64,000 nucleotides of DNA from Candidatus Bathyarchaeia archaeon (GTDB lineage: Archaea; Thermoproteota; Bathyarchaeia; 40CM-2-53-6): the NCBI GenBank assembly GCA_049513715.1, contig JBEKVV010000007.1:1-64000 (forward strand), read 5' to 3'. The notes beneath the pieces were generated by a model that was not told the origin of the DNA, did no database searches, and saw nothing but the letters and a program-made list of their open reading frames with translations. Below are positions 4,808 to 29,667 of the stretch, piece by piece. The position numbers were made by a program, and so were the translations under genes. Every line of letters begins with the position of its first letter. Position 1 is the stretch's first letter.

Positions 4808-4878
4808 ATATGTAGCGGTAAGTTCGGGTCAAAATCCAAATCTAAATTGGGGTTGAAATCCCCTGCCCCACCTCTGAA
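4808..4878 (+). repeat. Family B direct repeat, copy 1 (internally duplicated, degenerate)
   Basis: ATATGTAGCGGTAAGTTCGGGTCAAAATCC...TAAATTGGGGTTGAAATCCCCTGCCCCACCTCTGAA. Confidence 0.8.
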
Positions 4879-4909
4879 TTCAATCTACATGTTTGCGCTT
4901 GTTGCAAAT

Positions 4910-5128
4910 TCAACTCTGGGTCTTATGCCTGAGGATCAAAAATAGAGCCGCACAGGCTCCGCCCACTAAAACCAGTACGACATACAACTGCCAGTCTACT
5001 GATGTTGGATTTTGAATTTAGCTTGCTGTAGTTGCACTTCTTGTTGATGCAATACACGAAGGAGTTGTTGTTGCCGTTGTAGTTGGAACTGAGGTTGTAG
5101 TGGTCATTGCTTGGGGGAGCAATATCAT
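4910..5128 (-). pseudogene. Remnant of a surface-protein C-terminus (Thr-rich linker, TM, basic tail) with an internal stop
   Basis: MILLPQAMTTTTSVPTTTATTTPSC...TAS*IQNPTSVDWQLYVVLVLVGGACAALFLILRHKTQS*. Confidence 0.5.
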
Positions 5129-5230
5129 GATTTAGCGGTTTCGGATACGTTCACCTAATACTCAGTACCTACCAAAAAACCTCAAACAAGTTATGACTAA
5201 TGAAAACCCACGCATGCCCTTTCGCGGGTC

Positions 5231-5268
5231 TATGTACCGGTAAATTGGTGCTGAAATCCCCTGAGCCC
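5231..5268 (+). repeat. Family B direct repeat, copy 2 (3'-degenerate)
   Basis: TATGTACCGGTAAATTGGTGCTGAAATCCCCTGAGCCC. Confidence 0.8.
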
Positions 5269-5330
5269 TTCGTGAGTTATCGAGAACGATGATGGGAGAA
5301 GGTAATCATGCTTATCAACGGTAGAATAGA

Positions 5331-5364
5331 ACAGTCGTAATGAGTAAACAGTCGTAATGAGTAA
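5331..5364. repeat. 17-bp tandem duplication
   Basis: ACAGTCGTAATGAGTAA occurs twice in tandem, just upstream of the MBL gene. Confidence 0.85.
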
Positions 5365-5379
5365 AAAGCTGGGCGAATC

Positions 5380-6774
5380 TTGAAGATTCGATTTCTGGGC
5401 GCAACGCATCAGGTAACCGGGTCAAGCTACCTTGTAGACGTGGCGGGCTTGAAGATCCTGGTGGATTGTGGATTGTTTCAGGAGCGGCACTATTCGTGCA
5501 GGAACTGGGAGGCCTTCCAGGTTCCCCCGTACCAGGTTGATTATCTCCTCCTAACGCACGTCCACTTGGATCATTCGGGGCTTATCCCCAAACTCTTGAG
5601 GGAGGGATTCGGTGGGGCCATTCTGTTGACGGCTCCGTCGAAGGAGATGCTTCCCATCGTGCTACTGGATTCTGCTAGGATCCAAGAGGAAGATGCGGCT
5701 TTCAAGAAGAGTCGTCACGAAAGAGAAAACCGGACTGGGCCGTTTCCGGAGATTCCTCTTTACACGGTAGAGGATGCTAGGGACTGTTTTCCGCTCCTCA
5801 AACCAGTCCCGTACAGAGAATATGTTCCGCTGAATGAACATGTGAAGGTCTGCTTCCATGATGCTGGACATATTCTTGGCTCAGCGATGATTGAGATGGA
5901 GATTCAGGACGAGAGAGGGGCGCGGAACATGGTTTTTTCGGGTGATATTGGCCAATGGAACAAGCCGCTTCTCAACGACCCTTCGGTTTTTGATCGTGCG
6001 GATTACGTTATCATGGAGTCAACTTACGGGAACCGCAACCATGACAATACACAGGATGTGGAAGAGAAGCTCTCCAGGGTAATCAACGATACGGTGGGTG
6101 CGGGTGGGAATGTAGTTATTCCAACCTTCGCCATCGAACGCGCCCAGGAACTACTGTACCACTTCAACTATCTGGCGCGTGCGAAACGGATCCCCTACGT
6201 TCCGATTATTCTTGACAGTCCCATGGCCGTCGAAATTACGAAAGTCTTCGAACATTACGAGAAGTATCTGGATGATGAAACACGGAAACTCTTCGAGGAT
6301 GGTCAGTCCCCGTTTGACTTTCCAGGCCTGAGACTCATCGAGTCCGCTGAAGCTTCTAGGGGGATCAACACGACCGGAGGGTCAACGGTCATCATGGCAG
6401 GCTCGGGGATGATCACTGGTGGACGCATCAAGCATCACCTAGTCAGCAATATTGCTCGTCCGGAATCCACGCTGCTCTTCGTTGGCTACCAGGCGGTTGG
6501 TACGTTGGGGCGCGAAATCCTCGAAGGGGCATCACCGGTCAGGATACTAGGACAATCCTATCCCGTCAAGATGAGGATCGAAAGGATCGACGCCTTCTCC
6601 GCGCACGCCGGCATGAACGACCTTATCCGCTGGATAGACAATTTCAAATCACCGCCTAAGCGTGTTTTCCTGACCCACGGCGAAGACGACTCGATCCTAC
6701 GCATGAGCGACTATGTCCATTCGAAGGGTTGGGAAGTGAGCGCTCCTACATACGGGGAGGAATTTGACTTATGA
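5380..6774 (+). CDS. MBL-fold beta-CASP ribonuclease (CPSF/YSH1-like)
   Basis: LTHVHLDHSG, AGHILGSA, FSGD, MESTYG, FSAHA, THGE motifs. Confidence 0.92.
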   Translation: MKIRFLGATHQVTGSSYLVDVAGLKILVDCGLFQERHYSCRNWEAFQVPPYQVDYLLLTHVHLDHSGLIPKLLREGFGGAILLTAPSKEMLPIVLLDSARIQEEDAAFKKSRHERENRTGPFPEIPLYTVEDARDCFPLLKPVPYREYVPLNEHVKVCFHDAGHILGSAMIEMEIQDERGARNMVFSGDIGQWNKPLLNDPSVFDRADYVIMESTYGNRNHDNTQDVEEKLSRVINDTVGAGGNVVIPTFAIERAQELLYHFNYLARAKRIPYVPIILDSPMAVEITKVFEHYEKYLDDETRKLFEDGQSPFDFPGLRLIESAEASRGINTTGGSTVIMAGSGMITGGRIKHHLVSNIARPESTLLFVGYQAVGTLGREILEGASPVRILGQSYPVKMRIERIDAFSAHAGMNDLIRWIDNFKSPPKRVFLTHGEDDSILRMSDYVHSKGWEVSAPTYGEEFDL

Positions 6775-6826
6775 CAACTTTCATACGACAAATGAAAATG
6801 TCCGAAAGAACAAATTACACTTGCTG

Positions 6827-6873
6827 ATATGTACCGGTAAATTGGGGTTGAAAACCCCTGCCCCATCTCTGAA
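6827..6873 (+). repeat. Family B direct repeat, copy 3
   Basis: ATATGTACCGGTAAATTGGGGTTGAAAACCCCTGCCCCATCTCTGAA. Confidence 0.9.
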
Positions 6874-7050
6874 GCGAAAGGATACAACTTAGCAGATTTC
6901 GATCAGGTGTGCGTAAAGATTCGGGTTCACAACCTGAATGATTCTGAAGAGTCAGAAAACAAAAAGAGGACTCAAAATGATCCCAAACATCACAAACAGG
7001 AGAGAACGACAGTAGTGGTCTTGTCAATCGACATGGAAACTGCTAAGTAA

Positions 7051-8367
7051 TTGCTTCCGAGCCTATCACCTATGGGTCGTTGCAGGGTTCTTGCGTTAAC
7101 ATGCCTCATGATGACGCTGGTTCTTCCATTTGGTTCGACCGTTGCAAAATCTGGGGCATCAGCGGGGCAGATTAATGCCTCGACTCAGAGCAGCTCCGGC
7201 CGCTGCCATACGTTCTCAACCGTTCTGGGATGTGGGATCTTCCCGAGCGATGACACATTCACAGATAACCTCTTGCCAACAGAGATTATGGAGGAAGAAG
7301 CTAGTTCCGTCCTTATTGTCCAGAATACGCCAAGTGTTCCGGTCTCTAGGAATTATGCGTTCTTGAGGTTTAACCTCACAAGTGTGCTTCCGCAAGCCAT
7401 CTTGACGTCTCACGCTAAGCCTTTCAATGCATCGCTTTGGTTGTACTCTCGGTATGTCAACGGTTTCCAGAACGCAAGCGTTAGCGTCTATCGTGTTCCC
7501 ACCAATGATTGGAACGAGTCTGCGCTAACGTGGGACAACATGCCATCCATCGACATGAGTCATTTTGAAACACAGCAAATTACCACAGCCAATGCTTGGT
7601 ATCGTTGGAACATTACGGATGATGTGGGCAGTTCGCTACAAACCGGTGGGACGGTCTCTTTTGCGTTAATCGCTGGCGACACATCGTGGAAGAACTATGC
7701 GTGGTTTGACTCAAAGGAACACCCACAAAATGTTACCACAACTCCTGAGCTTGATATGTACTTCCGCGAACCAACATTGACATTAATTGCACCCTTCCCT
7801 CACCTTTCGGTAACAGTAGACAACAGAACGCTAGAGACCGACGCTAATGGAACACTGCAGGCGACTCTTCTATGGGGAGTACACCATGTCTCTGCTCCTC
7901 AAGTAATCGCTGAGGGGAATGGTGTGAGGGAGTTTCTCATTAGTTGGAGTGACAATGTCAGCTCATCAGTGCGCGAAATCAACATCGGCAGTAATCAGAC
8001 AATTGGAATTAACTACCGACGTCAATACCACCTCAACGTAACATCGCCCTACGCTACAACTGGCGGCTCTGGGTGGTACTTCGTAGGTGAAACAGCAAAC
8101 GCGACAGTTCAACCCACAGTCTTCTTCCATGAAGGCCTCCTTGGTTTTCTGGGTGTTCGTCGAGTGTTTGACCGCTGGGCCGGGGACTGCTCTTCGAGCC
8201 AGCCTGAATGTGTGCTTACTATGACTGGTCCAATGCAGACGACAGCGACCTGGAAAGACGACTATGCCATAACTGTCGTCATCTTCGCCGTGGTCGCCAT
8301 TGGAGCAGCTTTAGCGATGCTAAACCGGAAGAAGTTAGGAAAGCGAAGGCAGCGCAGCTCCAAGTAA
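7051..8367 (+). CDS. Secreted, C-terminally anchored protein with a DNRLRE/CBM96-like domain
   Basis: Signal peptide; YAFLRFNL, WNESALTWDNMP, FDSKE...PEL; QYHLNVTSPY..GSGWY domain; TM plus basic tail. Confidence 0.75.
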   Translation: MLPSLSPMGRCRVLALTCLMMTLVLPFGSTVAKSGASAGQINASTQSSSGRCHTFSTVLGCGIFPSDDTFTDNLLPTEIMEEEASSVLIVQNTPSVPVSRNYAFLRFNLTSVLPQAILTSHAKPFNASLWLYSRYVNGFQNASVSVYRVPTNDWNESALTWDNMPSIDMSHFETQQITTANAWYRWNITDDVGSSLQTGGTVSFALIAGDTSWKNYAWFDSKEHPQNVTTTPELDMYFREPTLTLIAPFPHLSVTVDNRTLETDANGTLQATLLWGVHHVSAPQVIAEGNGVREFLISWSDNVSSSVREINIGSNQTIGINYRRQYHLNVTSPYATTGGSGWYFVGETANATVQPTVFFHEGLLGFLGVRRVFDRWAGDCSSSQPECVLTMTGPMQTTATWKDDYAITVVIFAVVAIGAALAMLNRKKLGKRRQRSSK

Positions 8368-8394
8368 GATCACGCCACCCCTAACATTCCAACC

Positions 8395-9519
8395 CTAGCT
8401 TCTTTCTCTCCCGCCTCGTCTTTTTCTGTGAGTTGCTCGCTTCTTTCTGTCCCCGGCTACTCGCCGTCTGGGCGTCTGTCGTTTTCTGAAGCGAACAATT
8501 GTGAGAATTGCAGCTGCGGAAACGAGTCCAATGATGGTCATAGGAAACGCGTAGTCTCCATGCCAATGCGTCACGAGTGCGTGGGCGGTATTCATTGTTA
8601 CTGAACCATCTTTTGTGATGGTGAGCAGTGTACCGTTTTCATACCAGCCTTGGAACTTCCACACGCCTCTAAGAATTCCGAGGAAGCCTGACATGGGTTC
8701 TTCAACAGAGGGGACGGAGAACGATGCTGTGGTTCCCTGATCATACCATCCCGTTCCTGTTGCGTTGACCGGATAGCCACTCACAGCAAGCAAGTATTGT
8801 GCCGTGTAATTGGCCGCCAGAATTACGTCATGGTTCAGTAGAACGGTTCTGTTAGGTTGATTGACGCCGTCCGACCACGCCTCAAACTTTAGTCTCGTAG
8901 TGTTGTCGATTTGGACCGTGTCCGGTACGGAGACTCGGTGCGTGCCTACGACAAGTTTCAAACGTACACTTCCCGCCGGTTGAATCTCACTGTCCACAGT
9001 AACTCGGACATTGCTTGGAACGTTCAATTGCAGTGTCAGGGCGCTGGTCAACCTTATTGTGAACTCGAAATCGGTTAGCGACGATTGAATTTGTTTTGTG
9101 TTATTGTCGAAGAGACCAGCGACAAGGGCCAAGTTCATGATCGGTTGCGGTTGACTGAGAGAGAAGCTGGCATATTCACTACCAGAAGTCTTGGTCAGTC
9201 GAACTATGCACCCTGCGTAGCCGTAACCAAGGGCGCAGACACCCGGCAGAGCGCTGCCTGAACCCGCTACCAAATTCCCAGTTGTTAAGTCGAATATTCC
9301 GACGCCAAGATAGTAGCCCGGTTTAGCGTCCGAATACATGACCGTTGCTTTCACACTGAGGGGAGGGTCGGCTGTTCGTTGTTCGAGGTCGAAGACCGCG
9401 TACCTGGGATATTCCACATTCGTGATGTTGGTAGTTTGAGCATGAACTTGGGGAAGCGCGATTGTTCCAATTAAAGAAGCAATTAACAGGAGCTTGAAGA
9501 TCCTTCGGCGTCGATTCAA
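8395..9519 (-). CDS. Membrane-anchored surface protein
   Basis: Signal peptide, FEAWSDG, QYLLAVS...GTGWYDQG domain, C-terminal TM and Arg/Lys tail. Confidence 0.75.
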   Translation of the reverse strand: MNRRRRIFKLLLIASLIGTIALPQVHAQTTNITNVEYPRYAVFDLEQRTADPPLSVKATVMYSDAKPGYYLGVGIFDLTTGNLVAGSGSALPGVCALGYGYAGCIVRLTKTSGSEYASFSLSQPQPIMNLALVAGLFDNNTKQIQSSLTDFEFTIRLTSALTLQLNVPSNVRVTVDSEIQPAGSVRLKLVVGTHRVSVPDTVQIDNTTRLKFEAWSDGVNQPNRTVLLNHDVILAANYTAQYLLAVSGYPVNATGTGWYDQGTTASFSVPSVEEPMSGFLGILRGVWKFQGWYENGTLLTITKDGSVTMNTAHALVTHWHGDYAFPMTIIGLVSAAAILTIVRFRKRQTPRRRVAGDRKKRATHRKRRGGRERS

Positions 9520-9593
9520 ACGAGTTCAGTATGTCATTATGTTTCGTTCCAGAAAGCTGTTTTTCAACTTCTTTACGATTCCCATCAAGGGCC

Positions 9594-9642
9594 TTATATG
9601 TACCGGTAAATTGGGGTCAAAATCCCCTGCCCCATCTCTGAA
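9594..9642 (+). repeat. Family B direct repeat, copy 4
   Basis: TTATATGTACCGGTAAATTGGGGTCAAAATCCCCTGCCCCATCTCTGAA. Confidence 0.9.
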
Positions 9643-9946
9643 CACGCGCAGATGAATTTCGAAAGTTCAAACGAGGGTTTTGTTTTAGAGGTATCGTTAT
9701 TATTAGGGTCAGACAGAATTGCCTATTGGAAGATGATCGATCGTTGGGATTCATCTATCCTCCTCAGCGACGCATACCATACGTGCCTGCAGCAGGTGCA
9801 TTTTGCCCACGATGCCTCGCACCGCAACAGTATGATTTTAGGTTCTGTTGGCGTTGCGGATTGTACCTCGGCCGTTAGTGTGAATCCACCCGCCACCGTA
9901 GTCTGCTGTGAGAGTCAAGAGACCGAGCCTAAGGCTTGAATGAACC

Positions 9947-10555
9947 ATGAAGATCGTGGCCCTCGGGGACAGTCTGACGGTTGGAGAAACCGGGTTCTCT
10001 GATTCTGATGAATCTGCCTCGTATACGCAATATCTTGAGACCCTTGCTAAACAACATCTGACTAGTCTCCGCTCGGACGTGAGGGTCAACGTTCTGAATA
10101 GGGGAATTAACGGTGATCTGACCTCGGGTATGCTTGAAAGGTTCTCGAGGGATGTGGTTGATGAGAAAGCGGATTACGTGGTCATACTTGGAGGAGCCAA
10201 TGACTTGGGTTGGGGTTTTGATCCGGCAATGATCGCCCACAGCTTGACCACCATGTATGACGCGGCTCTGAACAAGGGCATTGCGGCCGTGGCATGCTCG
10301 GTGCCATCAATTCTTGGATTCGACGAATTGATCCCTCCAAGACTCCACCTTAACAGAATGATCCGCACGGAAGCAGAGATGAGAAGCATAGCATTCGTGG
10401 ATCTTTTCACGGCAACTGCCGACCCAAGGAACAATAGGCTCTCAGAGGATTACTCTGCCGACGGACTTCACCTAAACACAAACGGTTACCAGCAAATGGG
10501 CAAATGCATATTCGACAAATGGTTGAGAGGGCTTCTGGACCAACATACAAAGTAG
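9947..10555 (+). CDS. SGNH/GDSL hydrolase
   Basis: ALGDSLT, NRGING, GGAND and DGLH blocks. Confidence 0.92.
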   Translation: MKIVALGDSLTVGETGFSDSDESASYTQYLETLAKQHLTSLRSDVRVNVLNRGINGDLTSGMLERFSRDVVDEKADYVVILGGANDLGWGFDPAMIAHSLTTMYDAALNKGIAAVACSVPSILGFDELIPPRLHLNRMIRTEAEMRSIAFVDLFTATADPRNNRLSEDYSADGLHLNTNGYQQMGKCIFDKWLRGLLDQHTK

Positions 10556-10614
10556 TTTCGCATTCTGCTGCTAACAGAATTGGTGGGACTATCCACCATC
10601 GGCCTACGAGCTCG

Positions 10615-10662
10615 TTATATGTACCGGTACATTAGGGTTAAAATCCCCTGCCCCATCTCTGA
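10615..10662 (+). repeat. Family B direct repeat, copy 5
   Basis: TTATATGTACCGGTACATTAGGGTTAAAATCCCCTGCCCCATCTCTGA; contains the perfect palindrome ATGTACCGGTACAT. Confidence 0.9.
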
Positions 10663-10844
10663 GGCACATTAGGCTGTTGAAAAGACATTGAGTTTTCCGC
10701 TTTATCCGTTTCCGCAGAACATAGAATACTGGACAACCTACCAACGAGGTTTCGGGTGATAGAAAGCAAGGTAGAAATAGTTATCCGGCGTGGGCCCAAT
10801 CACATCGATGTGGTGCGGAACGCTAGGAGACTTCAGTAATTTTC

Positions 10845-11765
10845 ATGACTTCTGTCGGCGTCTATTTACCACGAGCAATTGAAGTTGAGCGGTCAATAGA
10901 GACTGCTGGAGAAATCGAGAGACTCGGCTTTGAATCCTTGTGGGTAACGGATCATCTCTTCGATACTGATGGTCAGATTTTGAACCCTTTTCCGGAGTGT
11001 TGGACGATGTTGACTGCAATAGCCTGCGCAACCAAGAGCATTAGACTAGGCCCACTCGTACTCGGTAATTCTTTTAGAAGTCCTGCGTTGGTAGCCAAGA
11101 TGTCTTCGACTCTTGACTGCATTTGTAGAGGTAGGTTGAATCTCGGCATCGGAGCGGCTTGGTTCGAGGAAGAGCACACAAAATACGGTTTCACATTTCG
11201 AAAACCGCCTGAGAGAATCGAAGCGCTTTCGGAGGCTGTACAAATAATCCTCGGAATGTGGACTCAACCAGAGTATTCTTTCTCGGGCAAATACTACAAA
11301 TGTGTTAGGGCTGTAAATGAACCAAAGCCCTTCCAGAAGCCGCACCCCCCCGTTTGTATTGGAGGCAAAGGGGATCGGATGCTGTCCATTGCAGCTGCTT
11401 ATGCCGACATCTACAACGCAGCGGGGCCAGGTCCAAATCCTACGCCCGAGGAATACGTGACTCTGCTCAAGAAACTAAGAGACCATTGCCTTAAGACTGG
11501 TCGCGATTTTCACAAAATAAAGAAGACGTGGGGCGGGTACATCTGCGTTGCGCGAAATGAACGCGAGCTCAAAGAAATGGTGAAGCGGTTGCGGTTGGAT
11601 CCAACTCGGGCGGTAATAGGAACAATAGATAGCTGCATTTCAAAGATCAATGACTTTAAAGAAGCTGGCGTGGAAGGTATTATGGCAATCTTTCCCGATC
11701 TCTGGGATTCAGGGTCCTTGGAAATGGCAACTCTTTTCGCGGATGCAATTCTGAACAAAGTATAA
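10845..11765 (+). CDS. LLM-class (luciferase-like) flavin/F420-dependent oxidoreductase
   Basis: GFESLWVTDH, R.PALVAKM..TLD...GRLNLGIGA, PKPFQKPHPP..IGG. Confidence 0.9.
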   Translation: MTSVGVYLPRAIEVERSIETAGEIERLGFESLWVTDHLFDTDGQILNPFPECWTMLTAIACATKSIRLGPLVLGNSFRSPALVAKMSSTLDCICRGRLNLGIGAAWFEEEHTKYGFTFRKPPERIEALSEAVQIILGMWTQPEYSFSGKYYKCVRAVNEPKPFQKPHPPVCIGGKGDRMLSIAAAYADIYNAAGPGPNPTPEEYVTLLKKLRDHCLKTGRDFHKIKKTWGGYICVARNERELKEMVKRLRLDPTRAVIGTIDSCISKINDFKEAGVEGIMAIFPDLWDSGSLEMATLFADAILNKV

Positions 11766-11908
11766 ACATTTGTCCGCTTGCGATTCGGTTATGACGACTC
11801 CCTATGCTGCCCGGTCGACTACCCCTTGATATGGCAACGCAATTCTCAGGATTGAATTCCGTAAATAACACTTAATGCACGAGTCATCGTCGTCCTGCGA
11901 GGCTCAAG

Positions 11909-13033
11909 TTGAGCAAAGTTCTGGTCATTGGTCTGGGCAGTCTTGGCGGCTACGTTGTTGAGTTTCTAGCTAGGTCCTTCGGGCCGACCGAAATCATCGC
12001 CGCAGATGCGGATGAGCAACGTGGATTGCAGAAGATGAACAACGCAATGCTCGGCGCGGCAAACATGGGCTTCTACCCTCGGATGAAATTTCTGAAAATC
12101 GACTTGAACGACGTTGATGGGACTGCTGCCATCCTGCGAAGTGAACAGCCCAGGCTAGTGGTCAATGCGACGACGCTTCAGTCTTGGTGGGTGATCGGTA
12201 CTCAACTGATTGAGGACGCCTACCTGAGACTGCTGGATGCGGGGTTAGGACCATGGATACCCGTGCATCTTACCCTCACTCACAAACTGATGCAAGCTGT
12301 CCAGAAATCGGGAATAATGACGCACGTAGTCAACTGCTCGTTTCCTGATGCTGTGAACCCCATGCTGTCAAGAATAGGTTTGTCTCCTACGGTTGGAATT
12401 GGCAACTTCGATCTACTGATTCCTCGAATCAAGAAGGGAGTAAGTGACAAACTCGGTGTCCCTATGAAGGCCGTGACAGTTCTCATGTTGGGACATCACT
12501 ACCATGATGTCAGAGTGGAAGAGTTCGGTACCACAGGGGGAGCACCGTATTTCCTGCGAATCTGTGTCGATGGCGAGGATGTGACTGAGCGAGTAAATGC
12601 TGAGAAGATGTTGCTCACTTCGATTCCAACTCCCCCGCTTACTGGTAGCGATTCTCAAGTTGCGTCATCCGCGGTCAAGAACATACTGGCGATCATAAAT
12701 GACACCAAAGAATTGACTCATGCTCCGGGCCCGCGAGGACTGCCCGGCGGATATCCTGTGCGCCTGAGTTCTAAAGGAGCAGAGGTTGTAGTTCCAGCGG
12801 GGCTAACTCTCGAAGAGGCCGTACATATCAACGAGGAAGCCCAAAAATACGATGGAATAGAACGAATAGAGCACGATGGGACGGTTGTGCTCACTGACAA
12901 ATCGCACAAGATCATGAGCGAACTGTTACATTATGACCGCCAGCAAGTTAGGATTCTTGAGTGCGAGAGCGCAGCCCATGAACTACGTCAGCTCTACCAT
13001 GAGTATGCCTCAAAGCACCCAAAGAAAGGCTGA
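11909..13033 (+). CDS. NAD(P)-binding Rossmann protein, saccharopine-dehydrogenase-like
   Basis: IGLGSLGG nucleotide-binding motif; VVNCSFPDAVNP; HAPGPRGLPGGYPV. Confidence 0.7.
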   Translation: MSKVLVIGLGSLGGYVVEFLARSFGPTEIIAADADEQRGLQKMNNAMLGAANMGFYPRMKFLKIDLNDVDGTAAILRSEQPRLVVNATTLQSWWVIGTQLIEDAYLRLLDAGLGPWIPVHLTLTHKLMQAVQKSGIMTHVVNCSFPDAVNPMLSRIGLSPTVGIGNFDLLIPRIKKGVSDKLGVPMKAVTVLMLGHHYHDVRVEEFGTTGGAPYFLRICVDGEDVTERVNAEKMLLTSIPTPPLTGSDSQVASSAVKNILAIINDTKELTHAPGPRGLPGGYPVRLSSKGAEVVVPAGLTLEEAVHINEEAQKYDGIERIEHDGTVVLTDKSHKIMSELLHYDRQQVRILECESAAHELRQLYHEYASKHPKKG

Positions 13034-13331
13034 TTTCTCAGCCTTTGACCACTGCTAAGAGTGTACCGCCACAACGCCTTGCGATGTGTCTGGTCAGACC
13101 GAAAAGTACACACTAAGCTGATGTTTCCAGGACAGGCCGACGATGCAGCCGCGTTGGGAACCGAGAGCTTCAGCTTTTCCGAAACCGGTCGAATTGCTGA
13201 TTTCACAGGCCTATTTTGCGAAGTATATTCTACAGATACGTCGGGGAGTCAGGATTGTCTACTATATTATCTAAATAGATAGCAGTTAATTTCACAGCTA
13301 ACTGAAATGCTCGTCGGAGGTATTCTCGAAA

Positions 13332-14507: not shown

Positions 14508-14522
14508 GAACACGCCGTTTCT

Positions 14523-14550
14523 GAGCCCGCCCGGGCTCCCTTTCTTTTTC
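14523..14550 (+). terminator. Hairpin plus pyrimidine tract between convergent genes
   Basis: GAGCCC-GCCC-GGGCTC followed by CCTTTCTTTTTC. Confidence 0.5.
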
Positions 14551-17015: not shown

Positions 17016-17018
17016 TTC

Positions 17019-20437: not shown

Positions 20438-20448
20438 GAATTGGACAA

Positions 20449-22206: not shown

Positions 22207-22467
22207 TTGCGATTTGCCGTGAACTGGTGAGTAGCAGACCACAATCTCGAGTGGGATAAGGGCTCGCTCGTGGTGCGCCGGATCTAGTCTTGTTTCCCTG
22301 CTAGGAATAATCGACTGAGCGCGCGGATGCCGCTTTCAGTCTTTCCAATTATCACATAGCGCACTTTCGCTTTCGCTTTCGGAAAAAGTCATGTTTGATA
22401 TTGCGCAACAACTCTTAACCTACGCATCATTTGTTGATTTCGCCGTTTTGAGGAAAAGGGATTCGAA

Positions 22468-23529
22468 ATGACTTCTCTCAGTTTTCTATTTCTTTCGCAG
22501 GAAGATGTCATTGAATGCGGAGGTCTTGACGCGCGCAAATGTGTGGAGACGATAGACAAAACTTTCAAGCTTCACGCGAAGGGCGAGACTCTAATGGGTG
22601 GGCCGAGCCGTCATGAACATGGAATATTGTTGAGTTGGCCAGGTGTCAACATTTCGACAGGCAAACGTATGATGGCCATGCCGGCCTGGGTTGGAGGAGA
22701 GTTCAACATGGCCGGCTGCAAATGGTATGGAGCCAACGTTCGAAACCCCACCGAACATAATCTGCCAAGGTCGTCACACATCATAACCCTGAACGATCCC
22801 GAGACAGGTATCCCTCTTGCGGTGATGGATGGTACGTTGATAAGTGCTATGAGGACCGGCGCTGCCGCCGCTGTGGGCGCCAAGTACCTGGCCAGAATTG
22901 ATTCAGAGATGGTGGCAATGCTGGGTGCAGGAGTAATTAATAGAACCACGCTCATGTGTGACATTCATGCGATGAAGAACTTGAAGAAAGTCAAGATCTT
23001 CGACATACGGAAGGAGAAGTCCAAAGCGTTTTCGCAGGAAATGAGCAGGAGGCTGGGGCTGGAGATTGAATGCACAGACAGCATGGAAGCGGCAATCAAG
23101 GATTCAGACGTATGCCACCTTGCCACCGCTGGGGAAAGTGATCCGACTCTTGAGTCCAGATGGTTCAGGGAAGGTTCAGTTCTTGATGCCGTTTCCGACT
23201 TCGTGGGATCGGATGACATTCTCCTGAGAGCAGACAGAGTTGTTGTCGATGACATAGAGATGCACCGAGCCATGGCACCCTACTCTCCAGAAAATCTCCT
23301 TTGCACGTTGATGATCCAAGGACGGATGAAATGGAATGATTTGGTTGAACTGGGAGCCGTAGCCATAGGCTCGAAACGAGGCAGACTGAGTGATGAAGAG
23401 AAGATAACCCTCTGTATAGAGGGGATGGCCATTGAAGACATAGCTTGGGCTTGCGCTGTGTACAAAGAGGCACTCAAGAGAGGATTCGGGAGAACCCTGG
23501 ATCTATACAAGGCGCCATTTGCAATTTAG
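22468..23529 (+). CDS. Ornithine cyclodeaminase / mu-crystallin family protein
   Basis: MAMPAWVGG, KWYG.N, ISAMRTGA, GAGVI, GMAIEDIA. Confidence 0.88.
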   Translation: MTSLSFLFLSQEDVIECGGLDARKCVETIDKTFKLHAKGETLMGGPSRHEHGILLSWPGVNISTGKRMMAMPAWVGGEFNMAGCKWYGANVRNPTEHNLPRSSHIITLNDPETGIPLAVMDGTLISAMRTGAAAAVGAKYLARIDSEMVAMLGAGVINRTTLMCDIHAMKNLKKVKIFDIRKEKSKAFSQEMSRRLGLEIECTDSMEAAIKDSDVCHLATAGESDPTLESRWFREGSVLDAVSDFVGSDDILLRADRVVVDDIEMHRAMAPYSPENLLCTLMIQGRMKWNDLVELGAVAIGSKRGRLSDEEKITLCIEGMAIEDIAWACAVYKEALKRGFGRTLDLYKAPFAI

Positions 23530-23743
23530 ACAAGAGAAATTGCACATCGTTACTCTAGGAAGGAATTCCCGACAGTTTGGGATCGACTTGGGTATGTTAG
23601 AAGTCCAGAACATAACTCCAGACCAAGTCATTCAGTACGCAACGGGCGTGTCAGACAACGGCGACACTGAATTTGCGAGCGTCTCAACCTAGGATATTCT
23701 TCAGTCTCAACATGCATTTAGAAAGACAATAGCGTGATACTAC

Positions 23744-24790
23744 ATGAAGCCCTTTCCGAGATTGACTAGGGATGAAGAAGAGAGGGCCACTGCTATTCAT
23801 CTTGAGGCTTTCGTGATAGACGGACTAACGGTGAGTTCACATTCAAGACAGCAATTCAGTAAGATGATTCAGGGCGGAGTTAACGCGGCGAATTGGACCA
23901 TCGCCGAACCAGAACACGACTTTAGACAATGTATCCACGACATCACAAGCTGGTATTCCCTTCTGAGGAGCAACGAAGACAAAACCACATTCGTCGTCAC
24001 CGCTCGCGATATACTACAAGCAAAGAAGGAGAAGAAGGTAGGGATAATCTTTGGGCTCCAAAATGCTAAGCCGATCGGAGACGAAATCGGCATCCTACAG
24101 GTTTTGCATCGGCTGGGCCTACGGATTATTCAGCTCACCTACAACGAGCGCAACTTCATTGGTGATGGTGCGGGCGAGAAGACAGACTGTGGACTGAGCT
24201 CTTTCGGAGAGAGAGTCGTTGAGGAGATGAATAGGCTAGGGATCCTCATCGATCTCTCTCACTGTGGAAGTAGAACGAGTATTGAGGCCATCGAGCTGTC
24301 AAAGGATCCGGTGGTTTTCTCGCATGCCGGCACAAGAAGACTCTGCAACAGCCCTCGCAATAAGGGCGATGAAGAATTGAAATCGATCGCTGAGAAAGGA
24401 GGTCTTGTTGGGGCGAACGCTTGGGGGCCTGTGATTTGGAGGAAGGAAAGGCAGCAGCCGACGATTGACGACTTCCTGAATCACATAGATTACCTCGTCC
24501 GCCTGATTGGGGTAGATCATGTTGGAATTGGGCTTGATCTGTCAGAGGGCACGGGAAGTCAACTCTCGGGCGCGGGAGAAGCGGAGTGGGAAGTCTACAA
24601 GGCGAAGTATCCGCAAATCATCCCACCTTGGCTTACAGTTGAAATGGAGTATGCTGCGGAACTCAAAAGCCATCTTCAAGTTCCAAACATAACGAGAGGA
24701 TTGGTGTGCCGAGGATATTCAGACAAGGAGATAAGGGGCATTTTGGGGGCCAACTTCTTGCGGATCTTCGAGAAGGTGTGGAAACAATGA
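23744..24790 (+). CDS. Membrane dipeptidase (peptidase M19) family protein
   Basis: QLTYNERN, MNRLGILIDLSH, SHAG, PRNK.DE, HVGIGLD. Confidence 0.88.
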   Translation: MKPFPRLTRDEEERATAIHLEAFVIDGLTVSSHSRQQFSKMIQGGVNAANWTIAEPEHDFRQCIHDITSWYSLLRSNEDKTTFVVTARDILQAKKEKKVGIIFGLQNAKPIGDEIGILQVLHRLGLRIIQLTYNERNFIGDGAGEKTDCGLSSFGERVVEEMNRLGILIDLSHCGSRTSIEAIELSKDPVVFSHAGTRRLCNSPRNKGDEELKSIAEKGGLVGANAWGPVIWRKERQQPTIDDFLNHIDYLVRLIGVDHVGIGLDLSEGTGSQLSGAGEAEWEVYKAKYPQIIPPWLTVEMEYAAELKSHLQVPNITRGLVCRGYSDKEIRGILGANFLRIFEKVWKQ

Positions 24791-24988
24791 CCCGGGCATT
24801 TGTGTTTTGAACGGAGTGTCATCCGACTCGTTATGCTGATTGTTAGAAGATAGACTACTTCCTGACGTGCGTCGATGATCAGTTTTTTCCAATGGAGAGG
24901 TGCTTCTAAGGGCTTCGTCTATGTTCGTGAATAAGAACGAATCGGAAGTCTGAAAAGCAAAACACCATCAGGGTGTTGCTGTTCGCTT

Positions 24989-25642
24989 ATGCTAAGGATC
25001 AACAGGAATTTCGAGCGGGTTGATGGAAAACTAGTTGAAGCATACAAGAGACTATCCGTCTCGACTTTGGGTCATTTTACAGATATGTTGTTCATTAAGA
25101 GCCTGCGACCGAACAGGGACAGAGTGAAATTAGTCGGCCCAGCTCTTACTGTCAAGATCCCACATCTGGACTCGACTGCCGTACATGTTGCGCTTGATTA
25201 CGTAAAACCTGGCGACGTCGTCGTGGTAAGCATGTCGGGTGACATAGAGAGAGCTTGTTGGGGTGGATTTGTGACATACGGTGCAGTCAAGAAAAAGGTG
25301 GCTGGCGCAATCATAGATGGCAGAATTTGCGACCTCAGAGAGATCGATTCCCTTAACTTTCCCGTGTTTAGCAGAGGGGCGAGTCCTATGACTACTAGGA
25401 TAATGGGACTGGAGGGCGAGATTGGCGGTACGATTGCGGTAGACCAGGTATCCATAAGGGCTGGAGACCTGATTTTTGCAGACGAAGATGGTATAGCAGT
25501 TTTAGACAAAAGGAACGCTGAGAGCTACCATAATATCATTGAAGAAGCGGAGAGATCTGAAATCGCAGAGAAAGCACGCATGGACAGGGGAGAATCGCCT
25601 GCAGCGATAAGCGGAGCAGACAAATACGTAACACGAACATGA
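24989..25642 (+). CDS. RraA/HMG-aldolase family protein
   Basis: VGPALTV, PGDVVVV, ACWGG, IDG.ICD, GDLIFADEDG. Confidence 0.88.
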   Translation: MLRINRNFERVDGKLVEAYKRLSVSTLGHFTDMLFIKSLRPNRDRVKLVGPALTVKIPHLDSTAVHVALDYVKPGDVVVVSMSGDIERACWGGFVTYGAVKKKVAGAIIDGRICDLREIDSLNFPVFSRGASPMTTRIMGLEGEIGGTIAVDQVSIRAGDLIFADEDGIAVLDKRNAESYHNIIEEAERSEIAEKARMDRGESPAAISGADKYVTRT

Positions 25643-25664
25643 TTAGAAATGCGGATGAGTTTGT

Positions 25665-26462
25665 ATGATAAGGTTAGCTGCTGTACAACTGGAATCCTCG
25701 AGGATTAAGGGCGAAAACCTAACCAAAATGAGGAAGTGGGTCGGAAAGATCAGCAAATTCGAACCCGACCTGATTGTTTTCCCGGAAGAGTACATGTTCT
25801 ACTCTGTCGACGAATCCCCTAAGGTCATATACCGAAAAGCAGAAAGTTTGGATGGCCCATGGGTCCGCTCAGTTGCGAGGATCGCGAAAGATCACAATAC
25901 CTCCATTATTGTGGGAACGTACGAGAGAGAGGAGAAGACGAGGCGTGTATTCAACACTACAGTGTATGTGGATTCCAATGGTGAGTTGCAGCACGTATAC
26001 AGGAAAACGCATCTGTATGACGCTTTTGATTACAAAGAATCTGACGAAATCGCGCCCGGCGATGGTCCCCTCAATCTTGTAACTCTCAAAGACATCAAGT
26101 TCGGCCTGTGCGTTTGTTACGAGGTAAGATTTCCGGAAGTGGCGCGAACATACGCTCTTGCCGGAGCCGACCTCCTAGTGATTCCGACGGCTTGGGTTAG
26201 AGGGCTTCTCAAAGAGGAGCACCTCTTGACAATGGCAAAGGCTAGAAGTATCGAGAATACGATGTACGTTGCAATATCGGCTTTGATTGGTGGTATTTAC
26301 ACGGGAATAAGCGTCATCTTTGATCCGATGGGTGTGCCAATCTGTCGAGCGACTGACACCGAATCGTTCATCATAGCCAACATAAACAGGCATAGAATCA
26401 ATGAAGTAAGAAACCGGCTCCCTCTACTGAACCAGAGAAGAAGCAATCTCTACAAACTCTGA
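25665..26462 (+). CDS. Carbon-nitrogen hydrolase (nitrilase family, Nit1-like)
   Basis: FPEE, YRKTHLYD and CYEVRFPE carry the E-K-C triad. Confidence 0.92.
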   Translation: MIRLAAVQLESSRIKGENLTKMRKWVGKISKFEPDLIVFPEEYMFYSVDESPKVIYRKAESLDGPWVRSVARIAKDHNTSIIVGTYEREEKTRRVFNTTVYVDSNGELQHVYRKTHLYDAFDYKESDEIAPGDGPLNLVTLKDIKFGLCVCYEVRFPEVARTYALAGADLLVIPTAWVRGLLKEEHLLTMAKARSIENTMYVAISALIGGIYTGISVIFDPMGVPICRATDTESFIIANINRHRINEVRNRLPLLNQRRSNLYKL

Positions 26463-26502
26463 AATAAACAAATCACGGCATTATTCATAAAGGGGTGAAA
26501 TC

Positions 26503-27282
26503 GTGTCGGATCTTGAGGGAGAAGTTACTGCCATAATTGATGGCTTGAAAGGAAAGATAGGAGTCGCCGTCGCCGAGTTGCCCGACGGGCCGGAAATCAT
26601 GATCGACGCCGAGGAGCCTTACCGGGCCGCAAGCGTCATCAAAGTTCCAATCCTTTACGAGTTGTACCGCAAGCATGAGAATGGAAATCTGAATCTTGCG
26701 GCCACGCACGACGTCAGCGAGAGTAACCTCTGCCTTGGGAGTGGCGTTATCAGGAGCCTGCACAGATCGCTGAACCTAACGCTGAAAGATCTTGCCACCT
26801 TGATGATAATCGTTAGCGACAACAGCGCGACCAACGAATTGATCGATCTCGTCTCCATGAAGGATGTCAACTCAACCATGCAAAGCATAGGTCTTCGGCA
26901 CACAACCCTCAAACGTAAGATGCTTGGCCTTGCAGGCGGCGATGTTCCTTATGATCAGGACAATCTCATGAGTCCATCTGATTCAATTCTGCTTCTCAAA
27001 GAAATTTACTCTGCAAAGCACTTGACCAAGAACTCATGCGACTCCATGTTGGATATTATGAAAGAGCAGCAGTTCACCGAAAACATCCCACGGTATTTGC
27101 CAGAGGATGTTGTCTTTGCAGCAAAGAGCGGAACAGTGAAAGGTGTATCGAATGATGTGGCTGTTATCTATCTAAGAAAGGCAATCGGAATTTCGGTTAT
27201 GTGTAATGACCTTAAACACTACGCTTATGGCTCGGACGCTATCGCCAAAATCGGCCGCGCTGTTTACAGATACTATTCATAA
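26503..27282 (+). CDS. Serine hydrolase, class A beta-lactamase-like fold, no signal peptide
   Basis: AASVIK (SxxK), SDN and KSG motifs. Confidence 0.88.
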   Translation: MSDLEGEVTAIIDGLKGKIGVAVAELPDGPEIMIDAEEPYRAASVIKVPILYELYRKHENGNLNLAATHDVSESNLCLGSGVIRSLHRSLNLTLKDLATLMIIVSDNSATNELIDLVSMKDVNSTMQSIGLRHTTLKRKMLGLAGGDVPYDQDNLMSPSDSILLLKEIYSAKHLTKNSCDSMLDIMKEQQFTENIPRYLPEDVVFAAKSGTVKGVSNDVAVIYLRKAIGISVMCNDLKHYAYGSDAIAKIGRAVYRYYS

Positions 27283-27415
27283 TTGATCCGAGACCTACGA
27301 GATCGTACCGATCCCTCCCGGAGAACCTTAGAATCAACAATATACTGTTCTTACAATATTCTTTTACTCCTCTGACACCGTTTTCAAGCGTGCGTGTAAC
27401 GCAGCGCTGATCGTC

Positions 27416-28621
27416 ATGAAAGTCGTTGTTCTGGGAGGGGCAGGATTGACCGGCAAATGCGCCGTCAGAGATTTGATTGAGAGTCCTGAAGTTTCTGAGG
27501 TCCTTGTAGGAGACGTAGACTCAGAACGGCTAGGGAAATTCGTCTCCATCCTCGGGAGCAGCAAGGTGACGGCGGAGGTTGTAGACGTGAGAAACCACGA
27601 CAGCTTGGTCTCACTGCTAAAGGGAGCGAATGTTACTGTGAATGCGGTTCAGTACTACTTCAATCTGGACGTTATGAAAGCTGCCTTGATGGCACGGACA
27701 CATTACGTCGACCTAGGCGGCCTGTACCACATGACCAAGAGACAGCTGGAACTGGACAAGGATTTCAGGAAAGCTGGTCTCACAGCCGTTGTGGGAATGG
27801 GGTGCGTACCAGGAATCTCCAATGCAATGGCGCGTTGGGCCGTAGATAGGCTTGACTCGGTCGATACGATTCGAATCAGGGACGGATGGAGAGATTTCAC
27901 TCCAAATGCTCCGAGATTTGTGGCGACTTGGTCGATACAGACGTTTACAGATGAGTTCACGCAGAATGCCGTAATATTCGAAAACGGGCAACTGAGAGAA
28001 ATACCTCCCCTAACTCTTGCGGAGAAGGTTGCTCTGCCTCCTCCTATTGGAGAAATAGAAGCTTTCACAACACTTCACTCCGAGCTCGCCACTTTTCCAA
28101 CCTCATTCAAGGAGAAGGGAATAAAGAACGTCAATTGGAAAGAAGGTGGCCCGAAAGGCTGGCATCTCGACTACGAACTGATAGTCGCACTTGGCTTAAT
28201 GAGAGATGAACCGTTGAGAGTAGCAGACCGAGTTTTTGTTTCTCCGAGGCAGTTTTTCTTGAAACAGCTGGCACATAACAATCTTCTAGGGCATCCTGAA
28301 GACGTTGTCCCAGATGATTGGGAATGTTCACGAGTAGAAGTGCTTGGCAAGAAAAACGGGAAAAGCGCGGAAATGCAACTTGAGGTGCTCTACTCGGCCA
28401 AGAAGGAATGGAAGGCTAGCTCTGCGCAGTATGGCGTGGGCATACCAGCATCCATTGTCTCACAGATGCTTTGCGAAGGCCAAATCCAGAAAGCAGGTGT
28501 TCTTCCACCAGAGAACTGTGTCGATCCGACCATTCTATTCAAGGAGTTAGAAAAACGAAACATGCCTATTATGATCCGAGGGCCGGCCGGCATGGTGAGC
28601 TGGTCGACTTCTGGAGCATGA
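27416..28621 (+). CDS. Saccharopine dehydrogenase / carboxynorspermidine synthase-like oxidoreductase
   Basis: LGGAGLTG, HYVDLGG, GMGCVPGISN, HSELAT, GVLPPE. Confidence 0.85.
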   Translation: MKVVVLGGAGLTGKCAVRDLIESPEVSEVLVGDVDSERLGKFVSILGSSKVTAEVVDVRNHDSLVSLLKGANVTVNAVQYYFNLDVMKAALMARTHYVDLGGLYHMTKRQLELDKDFRKAGLTAVVGMGCVPGISNAMARWAVDRLDSVDTIRIRDGWRDFTPNAPRFVATWSIQTFTDEFTQNAVIFENGQLREIPPLTLAEKVALPPPIGEIEAFTTLHSELATFPTSFKEKGIKNVNWKEGGPKGWHLDYELIVALGLMRDEPLRVADRVFVSPRQFFLKQLAHNNLLGHPEDVVPDDWECSRVEVLGKKNGKSAEMQLEVLYSAKKEWKASSAQYGVGIPASIVSQMLCEGQIQKAGVLPPENCVDPTILFKELEKRNMPIMIRGPAGMVSWSTSGA

Positions 28622-29514
28622 TGCGCGGGCGGTTTTTGTCTCTGGAACTCTGGTTCGTCCTTGCAATAGCAGTTGTCTTCTTGTGGGGCTGCGACGGGAT
28701 ACTTGCCAAAGTAAGCACTCCCAAACTTGGTGTGATGCGCGTTGCAATCCTCATGGCTGTCGTCAGCGGGACGACGTATCTGTTAGGTTTCCTTTGCTGG
28801 CGCAACAACCTACGCATAGGTCTCGAAGATGCTGGGTTGGCTGGAATTTCATGCGTTGTTGGCGCTGTTGCATATCTTTGCTTCTTCGAATCCATCTTGG
28901 ATGGTCAGGTCGCGACTGTAGGGACAATATCAGCGGGCTACCCTGCCCTGACCGTGCTCGGCGCAATTTTCTTCCTGTCGGAGACTCTGAAAATCTTCCA
29001 GTTAGCAGCTATAGTCGCCATTATTGGTGGTGTAGTAGGTTTGTCGTATGAGCCGAACCCTAGTTCAGAGCATTCTATGCCGAGGAGATCTCTGTTCTTT
29101 GCGTTGCTCGCGTTCGCGCTTTGGGGAGTCTGGGGATTAACATCCAAAATGGCGATCAGCGCGGTGGGTGCTGGGAACATCTTCGGATTCTACATCATCT
29201 CATCGCTCACCGCGCCATCCATCTATGCGATTTATCGATTGGCAAAGCCTCGAGAATCTGGAGACATCAAACCTCCACGAGCTGCTTGGATTTATGGTGC
29301 GGCCGGGCTTGCCCTCAATTCGTGCGGTGTTTTCGCTTTCTCATTTGCTCTGAAGGTGGGATCTGCATCGCTTGTAGGGCCGATTACCGGAGCCTACCCC
29401 CTTGTAACGGTAATACTGGCTGTAGTGTTGCTGCACGAGAAATTAGATCGGCTTCACATAATCCCGCTCGTCCTCGTCATTATCGGTCTCATAGCGCTTG
29501 GGATCACGAGTTGA
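28618..29514 (+). CDS. EamA/DMT family transporter
   Basis: Duplicated 5-TM repeats (LWG...YPALTV...LSE; LWG...YPLVTV...LHEK). Confidence 0.88.
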   Translation: MMRGRFLSLELWFVLAIAVVFLWGCDGILAKVSTPKLGVMRVAILMAVVSGTTYLLGFLCWRNNLRIGLEDAGLAGISCVVGAVAYLCFFESILDGQVATVGTISAGYPALTVLGAIFFLSETLKIFQLAAIVAIIGGVVGLSYEPNPSSEHSMPRRSLFFALLAFALWGVWGLTSKMAISAVGAGNIFGFYIISSLTAPSIYAIYRLAKPRESGDIKPPRAAWIYGAAGLALNSCGVFAFSFALKVGSASLVGPITGAYPLVTVILAVVLLHEKLDRLHIIPLVLVIIGLIALGITS

Positions 29515-29617
29515 AGTTCATGCAAACAAGTGGAGGAGGGAAAGATCTTCGTCCTCTTATTACCCCCCGCGGAGCCGAATTTCAATTTAGCACAGACACG
29601 GGGCGGGGCTGTTGGCC

Positions 29618-29667
29618 TTATATGTACCGGTAAATTGGGGTCAAAATCCCTTTGCCCCATCTCTGAA
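29618..29667 (+). repeat. Family B direct repeat, copy 6
   Basis: TTATATGTACCGGTAAATTGGGGTCAAAATCCCTTTGCCCCATCTCTGAA. Confidence 0.9.

Follow-up and report, generated by a model that had tools for sequence, protein, structure and literature searches.

Repeats with a tRNA-Ser-like core bordering accessory gene blocks in a Bathyarchaeia genome: probable attachment-site junctions of serially stacked cargo modules

The first 64,000 nucleotides of contig C7 (C7:1-64000, hereafter the window) from a genome bin of a Candidatus Bathyarchaeia archaeon (G000; 2.79 Mb in 11 contigs) contain six copies of a short repeat, here called family B, which lie on the + strand between discrete blocks of genes. 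The bin was estimated at 99.4 for completeness and 8.79 for contamination, and its rRNA genes matched the archaeal models for the small and large subunits. The stretch was present nearly verbatim in each of the 24 sequencing runs holding it, whose habitats were peat and wetland, and no RNA runs were found among the listed holders. The tRNA genes of G000 are rich in introns: ARAGORN detected 9 when introns were disregarded and 33 when they were allowed, and 18 scored above the cut-off of the Rfam tRNA model. Within the window, ARAGORN detected no tRNA. Since it recognises few of these intron-rich genes genome-wide, tRNAs were located instead with the Rfam tRNA model and by searching directly for motifs. 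The comparison set consisted of 22 other genomes of the genus and 81 genomes sampled from other genera in the order; three near-complete relatives (G014, G016 and G018) were used for the mapping of repeat clusters.

The conserved unit of the repeat has a length of ~51 bp, from CTTATATG to CTCTGA in an alignment of 31 sequences (A2), with the layout G-CTTATATGTACCGGTAAATT-GGGG-N7-CCCC-TGCCCCATCTCTGA. Its left part, termed M(inv), is TTATATGTACCGGTAAA; its middle part, GGGG-N7-CCCC, is a look-alike of a tRNA T-arm; and its right part, in canonical copies, is a conserved 14-nt tail, X (TGCCCCATCTCTGA), which may be followed by a module C of ~45 nt terminating in CTCCCCGCACCA. The copies and the genes between them, including open reading frames (ORFs) identified with Pfam, are arranged in the window as follows:

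4808-4837 (+): copy 1a, left half only, with a degenerate M(inv) (ATATGTAGCGGTAAG) and the start of the T-arm look-alike (nhmmer E 7e-4, model positions 4-33)
4843-4884 (+): copy 1b, T-arm look-alike and X (GGGGTTGAAATCCCCTGCCCCACCTCTGA) (nhmmer E 6e-10, model positions 15-56)
5227-5276 (+): copy 2, M(inv) and T-arm retained, right side degenerate (TGAGCCCTTCGTGAG), class 'other'
5380-6774 (+): beta-CASP/RMMBL RNase, between copies 2 and 3 (PF10996 1e-37, PF07521 8e-17)
6824-6880 (+): copy 3, canonical M(inv)-T-arm-X, included in A2 (nhmmer E 1e-18)
7051-8367 (+) and 8395-9519 (-): two convergent genes, the former with CBM96 and the latter with no Pfam family, between copies 3 and 4
9593-9649 (+): copy 4, canonical, best match to the family model (nhmmer E 6e-19; model R1, 69.8 bits)
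9947-10555 (+): SGNH/GDSL hydrolase, between copies 4 and 5 (PF13472 1e-27)
10615-10672 (+): copy 5, canonical, with an extended palindrome (ATGTACCGGTACAT)
10845-29514 (mixed strands): cluster of ~19 kb between copies 5 and 6, from ORF calls and Pfam
29617-29717 (+): copy 6 with module C, class X+C, last site of the array, abutting the core gene at 29763
29763-30734 (-): PALP-family enzyme (PF00291 7e-84), first core gene past the array and right-hand anchor of the insertion described below

The repeat listing of the window placed the copies at 4829-4878, 5227-5276, 6824-6873, 9593-9642, 10614-10663 and 29617-29666, with 70-100% identity to the reference copy. All six copies of a preliminary description of this DNA were therefore present on the + strand, with the qualification that copy 1 is a compound of pieces 1a and 1b (7 nhmmer pieces for 6 copies) and that the right side of copy 2 is degenerate. 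A 36-nt core pattern, searched with up to 3 mismatches, gave three matches in the window and none in 100 shuffles. Copy 6 carries ~50 extra nt of the shared module C, up to ~29717 and ending in a decayed acceptor-like CTCCCTGCACCGCAG, and has ~100 nt in common with four other X+C copies of G000. A one-base insertion variant was observed in metagenome contigs at position 9629, within copy 4. The spacing of the window copies is irregular, from 388 to 19,002 bp when the 35-bp step inside compound copy 1 is excluded, in agreement with the earlier statement that they do not form an array of clustered regularly interspaced short palindromic repeats (CRISPR); similarly, no attC ends were visible in the 31-copy alignment, as had been described. 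The genes previously listed between the copies were found by ORF calls and Pfam, and the ~19-kb cluster, in which five ORFs were scanned with Pfam, contains a luciferase-like monooxygenase, saccharopine dehydrogenases, a solute-binding protein and an EamA transporter.

The scan of the genome and its relatives proposed in the preliminary description was carried out with a profile built from the window copies, and resulted in 48 nhmmer matches at E<1e-3 in G000. The family model also detected the repeat in 21 of the 22 relatives from the genus, each with between 1 and 31 copies, and a shorter form, mostly M(inv) plus T-arm, was present in 18 of the 81 genomes from other genera. In G000, M(inv) is found in 41 of the 48 copies and the T-arm look-alike in all canonical ones, and the right part consists of X (27 copies), X plus module C (5), a tRNA-Ser acceptor of CCA-type (7) or a degenerate sequence (9). 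X as a free-standing motif was rejected, because it never occurs solo: all 25 X matches fall inside copies. None of the 48 copies lies within a long ORF, which extends to the whole genome the location outside called genes noted for the window, and 11 of them coincide in part with short ORFs of 70-216 aa from a crude call. The copies cluster in few regions, mostly close to contig ends, with a genome-wide spacing of 35 bp to 23.8 kb (median 1.7 kb, 34 intervals), and form co-oriented runs of up to 13 copies (7/7 + on C7, 4/4 + on C10, 6/6 + on C4, 13/13 - on C5 and 4/5 - on C6). The first three bases of the T-arm loop in A2 are TCA, TTG, CTG or CCA, with positions 2-3 being always CA or TG, and these loop forms may mark sub-lineages of sites; no partner covarying with them was found among the A2 columns checked.

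Comparison with the relatives revealed that the array of the window is inserted DNA, at least 41.6 kb in length, which G014 lacks. The orthologues of a small gene (C3:516194-516475) and of the PALP-family gene (window 29763-30734) are only 25 bp apart in G014, whereas in G000 the same two genes are separated by at least 41.6 kb, corresponding to the last 11.9 kb of C3 and the first 29.8 kb of C7, with at least 9 copies of the repeat, all of them on the + strand. The PALP orthologues are 70-73% identical in relatives. The preliminary description had regarded an identical gene order across relatives and a random scatter of copies as observations at odds with its proposal; G014 lacks the array, and the copies are concentrated as indicated above. 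In G013 (C18; L055:740-760 and 11515-11545), a different insertion of 10.7 kb occupies the same place, in the 3' end of the small gene neighbouring the PALP gene, where it is flanked by a direct repeat of 14-16 bp (TAGACCACATGTTC) and the end of the gene is restored; this insertion looks like a different integrative element at the same hotspot. Regarding the assembly, scaffolding of C9 to C7 through a split gene for TFB (TFIIB-like) was rejected, since both ORFs leave the contig by the same end. A sequence of 450-730 bp with 92-96% identity was observed at four contig ends (C6:283-726, C5:221602-222045, C4:3-446 and C8:1-727), and it is probably this shared sequence that causes the assembly breaks beside arrays.

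The right part of the CCA-type copies relates the repeat to tRNA-Ser. In these 7 of the 48 copies, the sequence runs on after M(inv) as ...CCCCTCCCCCGCACCA, which is the exact 3' end (T-arm, acceptor and CCA) of the multi-intron tRNA-Ser genes of G000. The four genes of this kind (C1:124728, C4:128288, C5:220135 and C9:7145) end in GGGGTTC[AG]AATCCCC[GT][CT]CCCCGCACCA, and the true tRNA-Ser acceptor end in CCA-type copies is CCCCCGCACCA. On C9, the tRNA at 7145(-) is followed by copies at 4646(-) and 2301(-), and on C1 the tRNA-Ser at 124728(+) is followed by a copy at 124888(+). In the near-complete relatives, a same-strand tRNA-Ser 3' end was located at most 15 kb upstream of 3/5 clusters in G014, 2/4 in G016 and 1/3 in G018, against an estimated chance expectation of ~1-3% per cluster (4 tRNA ends in G014, 4 in G018 and 5 in G016; ~2.5 Mb). 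Four of these anchored clusters, in G014 and G016, are simple islands that extend from the tRNA-Ser to one CCA-type copy, lack an integrase and contain two glycosyltransferases (2.2 kb), an arginine decarboxylase and a DUF5818 protein (2.5 kb), a DpnII-like nuclease and unknowns (6.4 kb), and a peptide ABC transporter with amidohydrolases (13.5 kb). In G004:C33, a copy plus C that terminates in the acceptor lies 300 nt beyond an intact tRNA-Ser. In G002:C16, a tRNA-Ser-like variable arm and T-arm end in an X-like tail, a single case that suggests the type of junction expected at the head of an array. This fragment was the one result of a genus-wide pattern search for X as part of a live intron-bearing tRNA-Ser, a candidate that was discarded as no intact gene was obtained.

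The largest array, located on C5, is headed by an intact tRNA-Ser with its 3' end at 220117(-). Three nt further on lies TTTACCGGTACACATAATAG, an inverted M that is the only solo M among the 41 M matches of the genome, followed by an ORF of 182 aa, a recombinase gene, three opposite-strand ORFs and the first canonical copy, at C5:215925. Beyond it there are 12 further same-strand copies, the last of which (C5:160078) is CCA-type. The recombinase is described as follows:

C5:218588-219544: XerA-like tyrosine recombinase, 319 aa (PF00589, 96.5 bits)

The preliminary description had stated that the recombinase was not in the window and had suggested looking for a linked one; the candidate found here heads the largest array, on C5 and not in the window. 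Its best NCBIfam match was archaeal XerA (NF040815), with 181.6 bits, under the cut-off of 220, and its closest solved relative was XerA 5hxy (E 2e-16). On the integron-integrase models TIGR02249 and NF011946 this enzyme, the only strong tyrosine recombinase close to an array, scored 42.5 bits (cut-off 265) and 24.2 bits (cut-off 435), respectively. Orthologues with 63-66% identity are present in G003:C1, G008:C10 and G002:C2 within the same module, in which a tRNA 3' end precedes M (or a variant of it), a small ORF and the integrase. The right end of the 12.2-kb element of G002:C2 consists of M(inv) and the T-arm look-alike, and is thus family-B-like. M varies among these species (TACCGGTA, TACTAGTA and TACTGGTA), and these three cases suggest, as far as can be read from sequence, that M may be the binding site of the enzyme.

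The blocks between copies were also compared with those of other species. The SGNH gene and its copy (window 9925-10672) recur at 85-88% identity in different contexts and species, with 88% in G013:C4 and also 88% in G002:C88, and in an internally deleted form at the C3 end of G000; the SGNH gene alone shows 69-87% nucleotide identity to further genomes of this genus. Between G000 C9 and G013, a block with TFB has an identity of 89.5%, and the core genes that flank the array show 66-73% when compared with these genomes. Because the identity of the SGNH and TFB blocks exceeds the 66-73% of the neighbouring core genes, both look recently shared between species. A form of the SGNH gene with a 369-bp deletion (window 10141-10511) was also observed in metagenome contigs, and matches the decayed paralogue at the C3 end. 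TFB paralogues occupy repeat-bounded blocks at C9:1-909, C1:828652-829657 and C5:204408-205402 in G000, and at L045:6956-7894 in G013 and L039:9503-10441 in G017.

One recombinant joint was identified in G000. The left flank of the copy at C6:4965 corresponds to that of the copy at C5:175061 (784 bp, 97.6%) and its right flank to that of the copy at C5:182644 (129 bp, 93%), and the switch between flanks is placed inside the repeat, between GGTAAATTGG and GCTGAAATCC. Such flanks would be the combination expected of a circle junction or of an exchange between two B copies. The search for circular junctions that had been recommended gave this chimeric joint with fitting flanks, and no clean excision or circle joint in the contigs of 4 DNA runs, in which the joints at copies corresponded to cross-mapping of other copies.

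The repeat regions of relatives showed a gene content of the ordinary kind: twelve regions with 92 ORFs included genes for TFB, a DEAD-box helicase, ArgG/ArgH and MscL. In G017, two regions (C4:226000-238000 and 1000000-1012000; L036, L038) contain tandem operons for a molybdopterin oxidoreductase with a twin-arginine-translocation (TAT) signal and a 4Fe-4S subunit, with a B copy between operons, and copies were located 253-358 nt upstream of four such tandem operons. This arrangement suggests that the sites also take part in the amplification of blocks.

Other repeated and tRNA-like sequences were observed near family B. A second family, A, is present in the window at 422-501, 1879-1917, 3804-3842 and 32982-33010, and has dozens of dispersed copies genome-wide (for instance, C1:544861-544950 and C3:516510-516625), often directly upstream of B. 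Its forms are GTGTGTGGGTCTAGTGGTGCG...AATTTGAACCG or a short hairpin, GTGTGTG-CGCACCACTAGACC-CACACAC; read on the opposite strand, it has the look of a tRNA 3' end (GGTTCAAAT...GCTCGCACCA) followed by CTAGACCCACACAC, and a real tRNA-Val gene, C3:86166-86290(-), carries the same trailer. A duplicated cluster of tRNA-like 3' pieces (C5:206485-206620 and C1:892200-892345) is placed 7-8 nt upstream of a B copy, and consists of gaagggttcgaatcccttcgggctcc followed by cgtgggttcaaatcccaccRgccccac; part of it is labelled tRNA-Phe by ARAGORN, with an unpaired acceptor stem. Ahead of the B-like copies at C3:306851 and C4:217459 there is a tRNA-type end of a third kind (..CCGGACCCGCCA).

Altogether, we consider, with a probability of about two in three, that the family-B repeats are the junctions of attachment (att) sites of serially stacked cargo modules targeted to tRNA-Ser. 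The tyrosine-recombinase elements of this genus would have as their target the T-arm plus the 3' end, in tRNA-Ser genes and in one or more other tRNAs. M(inv) (TTATATGTACCGGTAAA) would be the recombinase-binding motif at the right end of the element, and the T-arm copy would be the shared core for strand exchange; after the core, a copy would continue either with X (TGCCCCATCTCTGA), which might be the left end of the neighbouring, older block, or with the displaced acceptor end of the tRNA (CCCCCGCACCA). Integration at a tRNA would leave on one side the tRNA joined to the element and on the far side M(inv)-core-acceptor-CCA, which is the structure of a CCA-type copy, so that these copies would be the outermost joints (P-O-B'). 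A further integration would bring together the right end of the newer block, the core and the left end of the older one, giving a canonical copy as an internal joint (P-O-P'). New DNA would enter at the tRNA or at an existing site through site-specific recombination, with older blocks being shoved outward, and in excision or circle junctions the crossover would be expected to fall within GGTAAATT|GGGG. Because blocks would stack at the tRNA, the sites of an array would share its direction, ignore that of the genes and bound self-contained blocks. The blocks devoid of a recombinase, which form the majority, could have lost their integrase modules, or could be moved in trans by the XerA-like enzyme, encoded by a small helper element beside tRNA-Ser.

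Several observations weigh against this interpretation. Half of the clusters in G014, G016 and G018 (6/12) have no tRNA-Ser within 15 kb; a search for a tRNA-Ser fragment at the C3 end, where the head of the window island was expected, found none; and the empty site in G014 contains neither tRNA nor repeat, although another contig may hold the head of the island. All canonical copies have a conserved X, which never stands alone, and a simple decay of tRNA ends does not explain this. Close orthologues of the recombinase were found in 5 of the 22 genomes of the genus (G002, G003, G008, G010 and, as a 141-aa piece, G015), in comparison with 21 of 22 for the repeat, and copy number does not track the enzyme: G017 (31 copies) and G004 (20-22 copies) have no close orthologue, and G003 has two integrases and 1 copy. 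No integrase family was detected among the 92 + 31 ORFs scanned in the repeat regions of relatives. Concerning exchange, the other blocks of the window are core-like in nucleotide identity (beta-CASP gene 71%, surface gene 66%, saccharopine dehydrogenase ~70%), and the joint at C6:4965 could derive from strain mixture or from the assembly, considering the bin contamination of 8.79%. Furthermore, contigs of 4 DNA runs span window positions 3798-9619 unbroken, and the stretch is almost word-identical in the 24 runs that carry it. The arrays may be largely fossil, built in episodes in which a helper element was present.

In a stronger version of the stacking interpretation, the canonical copy would itself be functional, as the site used by an archaeal counterpart of the integron that is based on a tRNA: small integrase-less cassettes, with one such site each, would circle out and reinsert at copies or at tRNA-Ser by means of the XerA-like enzyme. 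The enzyme would be provided in trans by a helper of ~4 kb that is gained and lost among species, and the cassettes would be drawn from a genus-wide pool. We regard this version as a tentative possibility, with the odds on the opposite side. A true integron, or a cluster of attC sites without integrase (CALIN), with folded attC-type sites and an IntI-type integrase, was the least credible of all the explanations considered. The co-oriented sites between blocks and the single tyrosine recombinase heading the largest array are features that it shares with the data; on the contrary, the scores of that enzyme on both integron-integrase models were far below their cut-offs, reading of A2 gave no RYYYAAC/GTTRRRY ends, five folds of the copies as single-stranded DNA were no better than those of shuffled sequences (z from +0.89 to -0.67), and the genes have mixed orientation in multi-gene blocks distributed over several loci per genome and not on one platform. 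From the inference of the preliminary description, recombination or element-end sites bordering accessory blocks can be retained, and the integron part cannot, given the lack of IntI, of R''/R' ends and of a folded hairpin, the mixed gene orientation and the often multi-gene units. The palindrome (TACCGGTA) and the GGGG-N7-CCCC motif that it reported are present; their proposed hairpin is not favoured by the folds. Modules of the Xer/dif type, in which dif-like sites are exchanged by the chromosome-resolution recombinase of the cell, as for the pdif modules of Acinetobacter plasmids or for Xer-exploiting elements, would fit the XerA family match of the enzyme and its structural relative. However, the score is below the XerA equivalog cut-off, the absence of the recombinase from 17 of the 22 genomes of the genus indicates that it is no housekeeping enzyme, and the site contains tRNA sequence; the archaeal dif layout (PMC2958812) is a 28-bp site with 11-bp inverted arms and a 6-bp spacer, and no such arms and spacer were seen on reading the consensus. 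This explanation seems quite unlikely to us.

The two remaining alternatives both appear improbable, the second slightly more so than the first. According to one of them, the repeat is an expression signal, be it a portable promoter (with TTATAT as TATA box) and leader, a terminator or insulator, a small RNA gene or a tRNA-like processing signal. The TATA-like motif, a T-arm-like hairpin that tRNA-processing enzymes might recognise, the conservation of the whole 51 bp, including X, in species whose core genes are only ~70% identical, and the position of the G017 copies ahead of four molybdopterin-oxidoreductase operons are consistent with such a signal. On the other hand, of the 48 copies, 26 have a downstream gene on their own strand, 21 have one on the other strand and 1 has none, while for the upstream gene these figures are 22, 25 and 1; on these counts a promoter or terminator was rejected, including the portable promoter that had been put forward. 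Distances to the start codon range from 0 to >500 nt. The GGGG/CCCC stem is invariant in A2, with no covariation available that would support an RNA fold. Rfam returned no family for the window at the gathering score, and at E<=1 on 54 kb of other arrays it gave only one match, to the tmRNA model, on a tRNA-like piece beside a copy. Moreover, an expression signal leaves unexplained the tRNA-Ser acceptor variants and the link with the integrase element. The other alternative is a short self-spreading repeat, similar to miniature inverted-repeat transposable elements (MITE) or repetitive extragenic palindromes (REP), or representing solo ends of an HUH transposon of the IS200/IS605 type, with strand-biased landing in intergenic regions; its bordering of blocks would then be only apparent. 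The uniform length and sequence of 48 copies, all between long ORFs, and the second dispersed family nearby with (GT)n/(CA)n hairpins would agree with it, and co-orientation could mirror the direction of replication. Against it, the Y1 HUH transposase (PF01797) had 0 matches in G000, with 3 candidates scored, a result that also disfavours the HUH-transposon ends mentioned in the preliminary description; no inverted partner was found, and with only 1 solo inverted M among 41 a cassette bounded by terminal inverted repeats was rejected as well; hairpin stability is not above that of shuffles, and the copies are concentrated instead of dispersed. In addition, a copy is partly the end of tRNA-Ser, arrays begin at tRNA-Ser genes and an integrase element bears the same motifs at both ends.

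The stacking interpretation bears on the gene content of uncultured archaea from sediment and peat, which varies greatly through a machinery that is poorly described. The 51-bp signature marks entry points of accessory genes across the whole genus, and can be used to map flexible regions, to explain assembly breaks and to choose cargo genes exchanged between species. Should the sites still be active, with a recombinase acting in trans, they would constitute a second, independent invention of integron-like cassette shuffling, in this case on a tRNA T-arm, and would offer a small and testable archaeal pair of recombinase and site.

Since the sites are derived from tRNA-Ser, the closest known kind of system is serial integration at a tRNA gene and not integron capture. 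The literature searched for integrated elements of this archaeal group yielded nothing beyond reports on viruses, proviruses and genomic islands in general. The tycheposons of Prochlorococcus islands are tyrosine-recombinase elements located at tRNA genes, one of them a tRNA-Ser, where newcomers push older elements inward and leave behind incomplete tRNA copies and cargo devoid of an integrase; functional elements are scarce and the islands persist (Hackl et al., bioRxiv 10.1101/2020.12.28.424599). These tRNA-anchored, additive islands with integrase-less cargo are the closest described kind. By comparison with the same account, the system studied here differs in belonging to an archaeon, in its XerA-like recombinase, in its small blocks (median spacing 1.7 kb) and in the absence of a visible replication module. 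Its joints are also uniform composites of M(inv), T-arm and X, with ~90% identity and up to 48 copies, and not plain partial tRNAs.

Other systems share part of these features. In Streptococcus thermophilus, integrative elements accrete in tandem, and cis-mobilizable elements (CIMEs) are integrase-less and flanked by att sites. As in CIMEs, the DNA between family-B sites mostly has no integrase and would be placed between att sites derived from an integrase-bearing element, whose integrase could conceivably move it in trans; unlike the arrays described here, CIMEs are bacterial, with a single locus occupied by one unit or two. Integrase-mediated gene capture at tRNA genes was reportedly described in archaeal chromosomes by She et al. 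in 2001, and the 'suicidal' integrases of SSV type have the att site inside their own gene, which is split on integration. The likeness to archaeal capture resides in the integration into 3' parts of tRNA genes, the direct repeats left behind and the captured genes that outlast a decayed element; in contrast with the SSV type, the integrase ORF of G000 is intact (319 aa), its att site is outside the gene and there are many more sites per genome. CALINs, being attC clusters without integrase, and integrons themselves resemble the family-B arrays in their co-oriented sites between self-contained, exchangeable blocks, with a recombinase elsewhere or at the array head, and differ from them in that the archaeal arrays have no IntI and no attC sequence or fold, are of mixed gene orientation with multi-gene blocks, occupy several loci and use tRNA-derived sites. 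The unusual traits of the family-B arrays are the uniform composite joint, its many copies within a single archaeal genus, and blocks that are small and in most cases lack an integrase.

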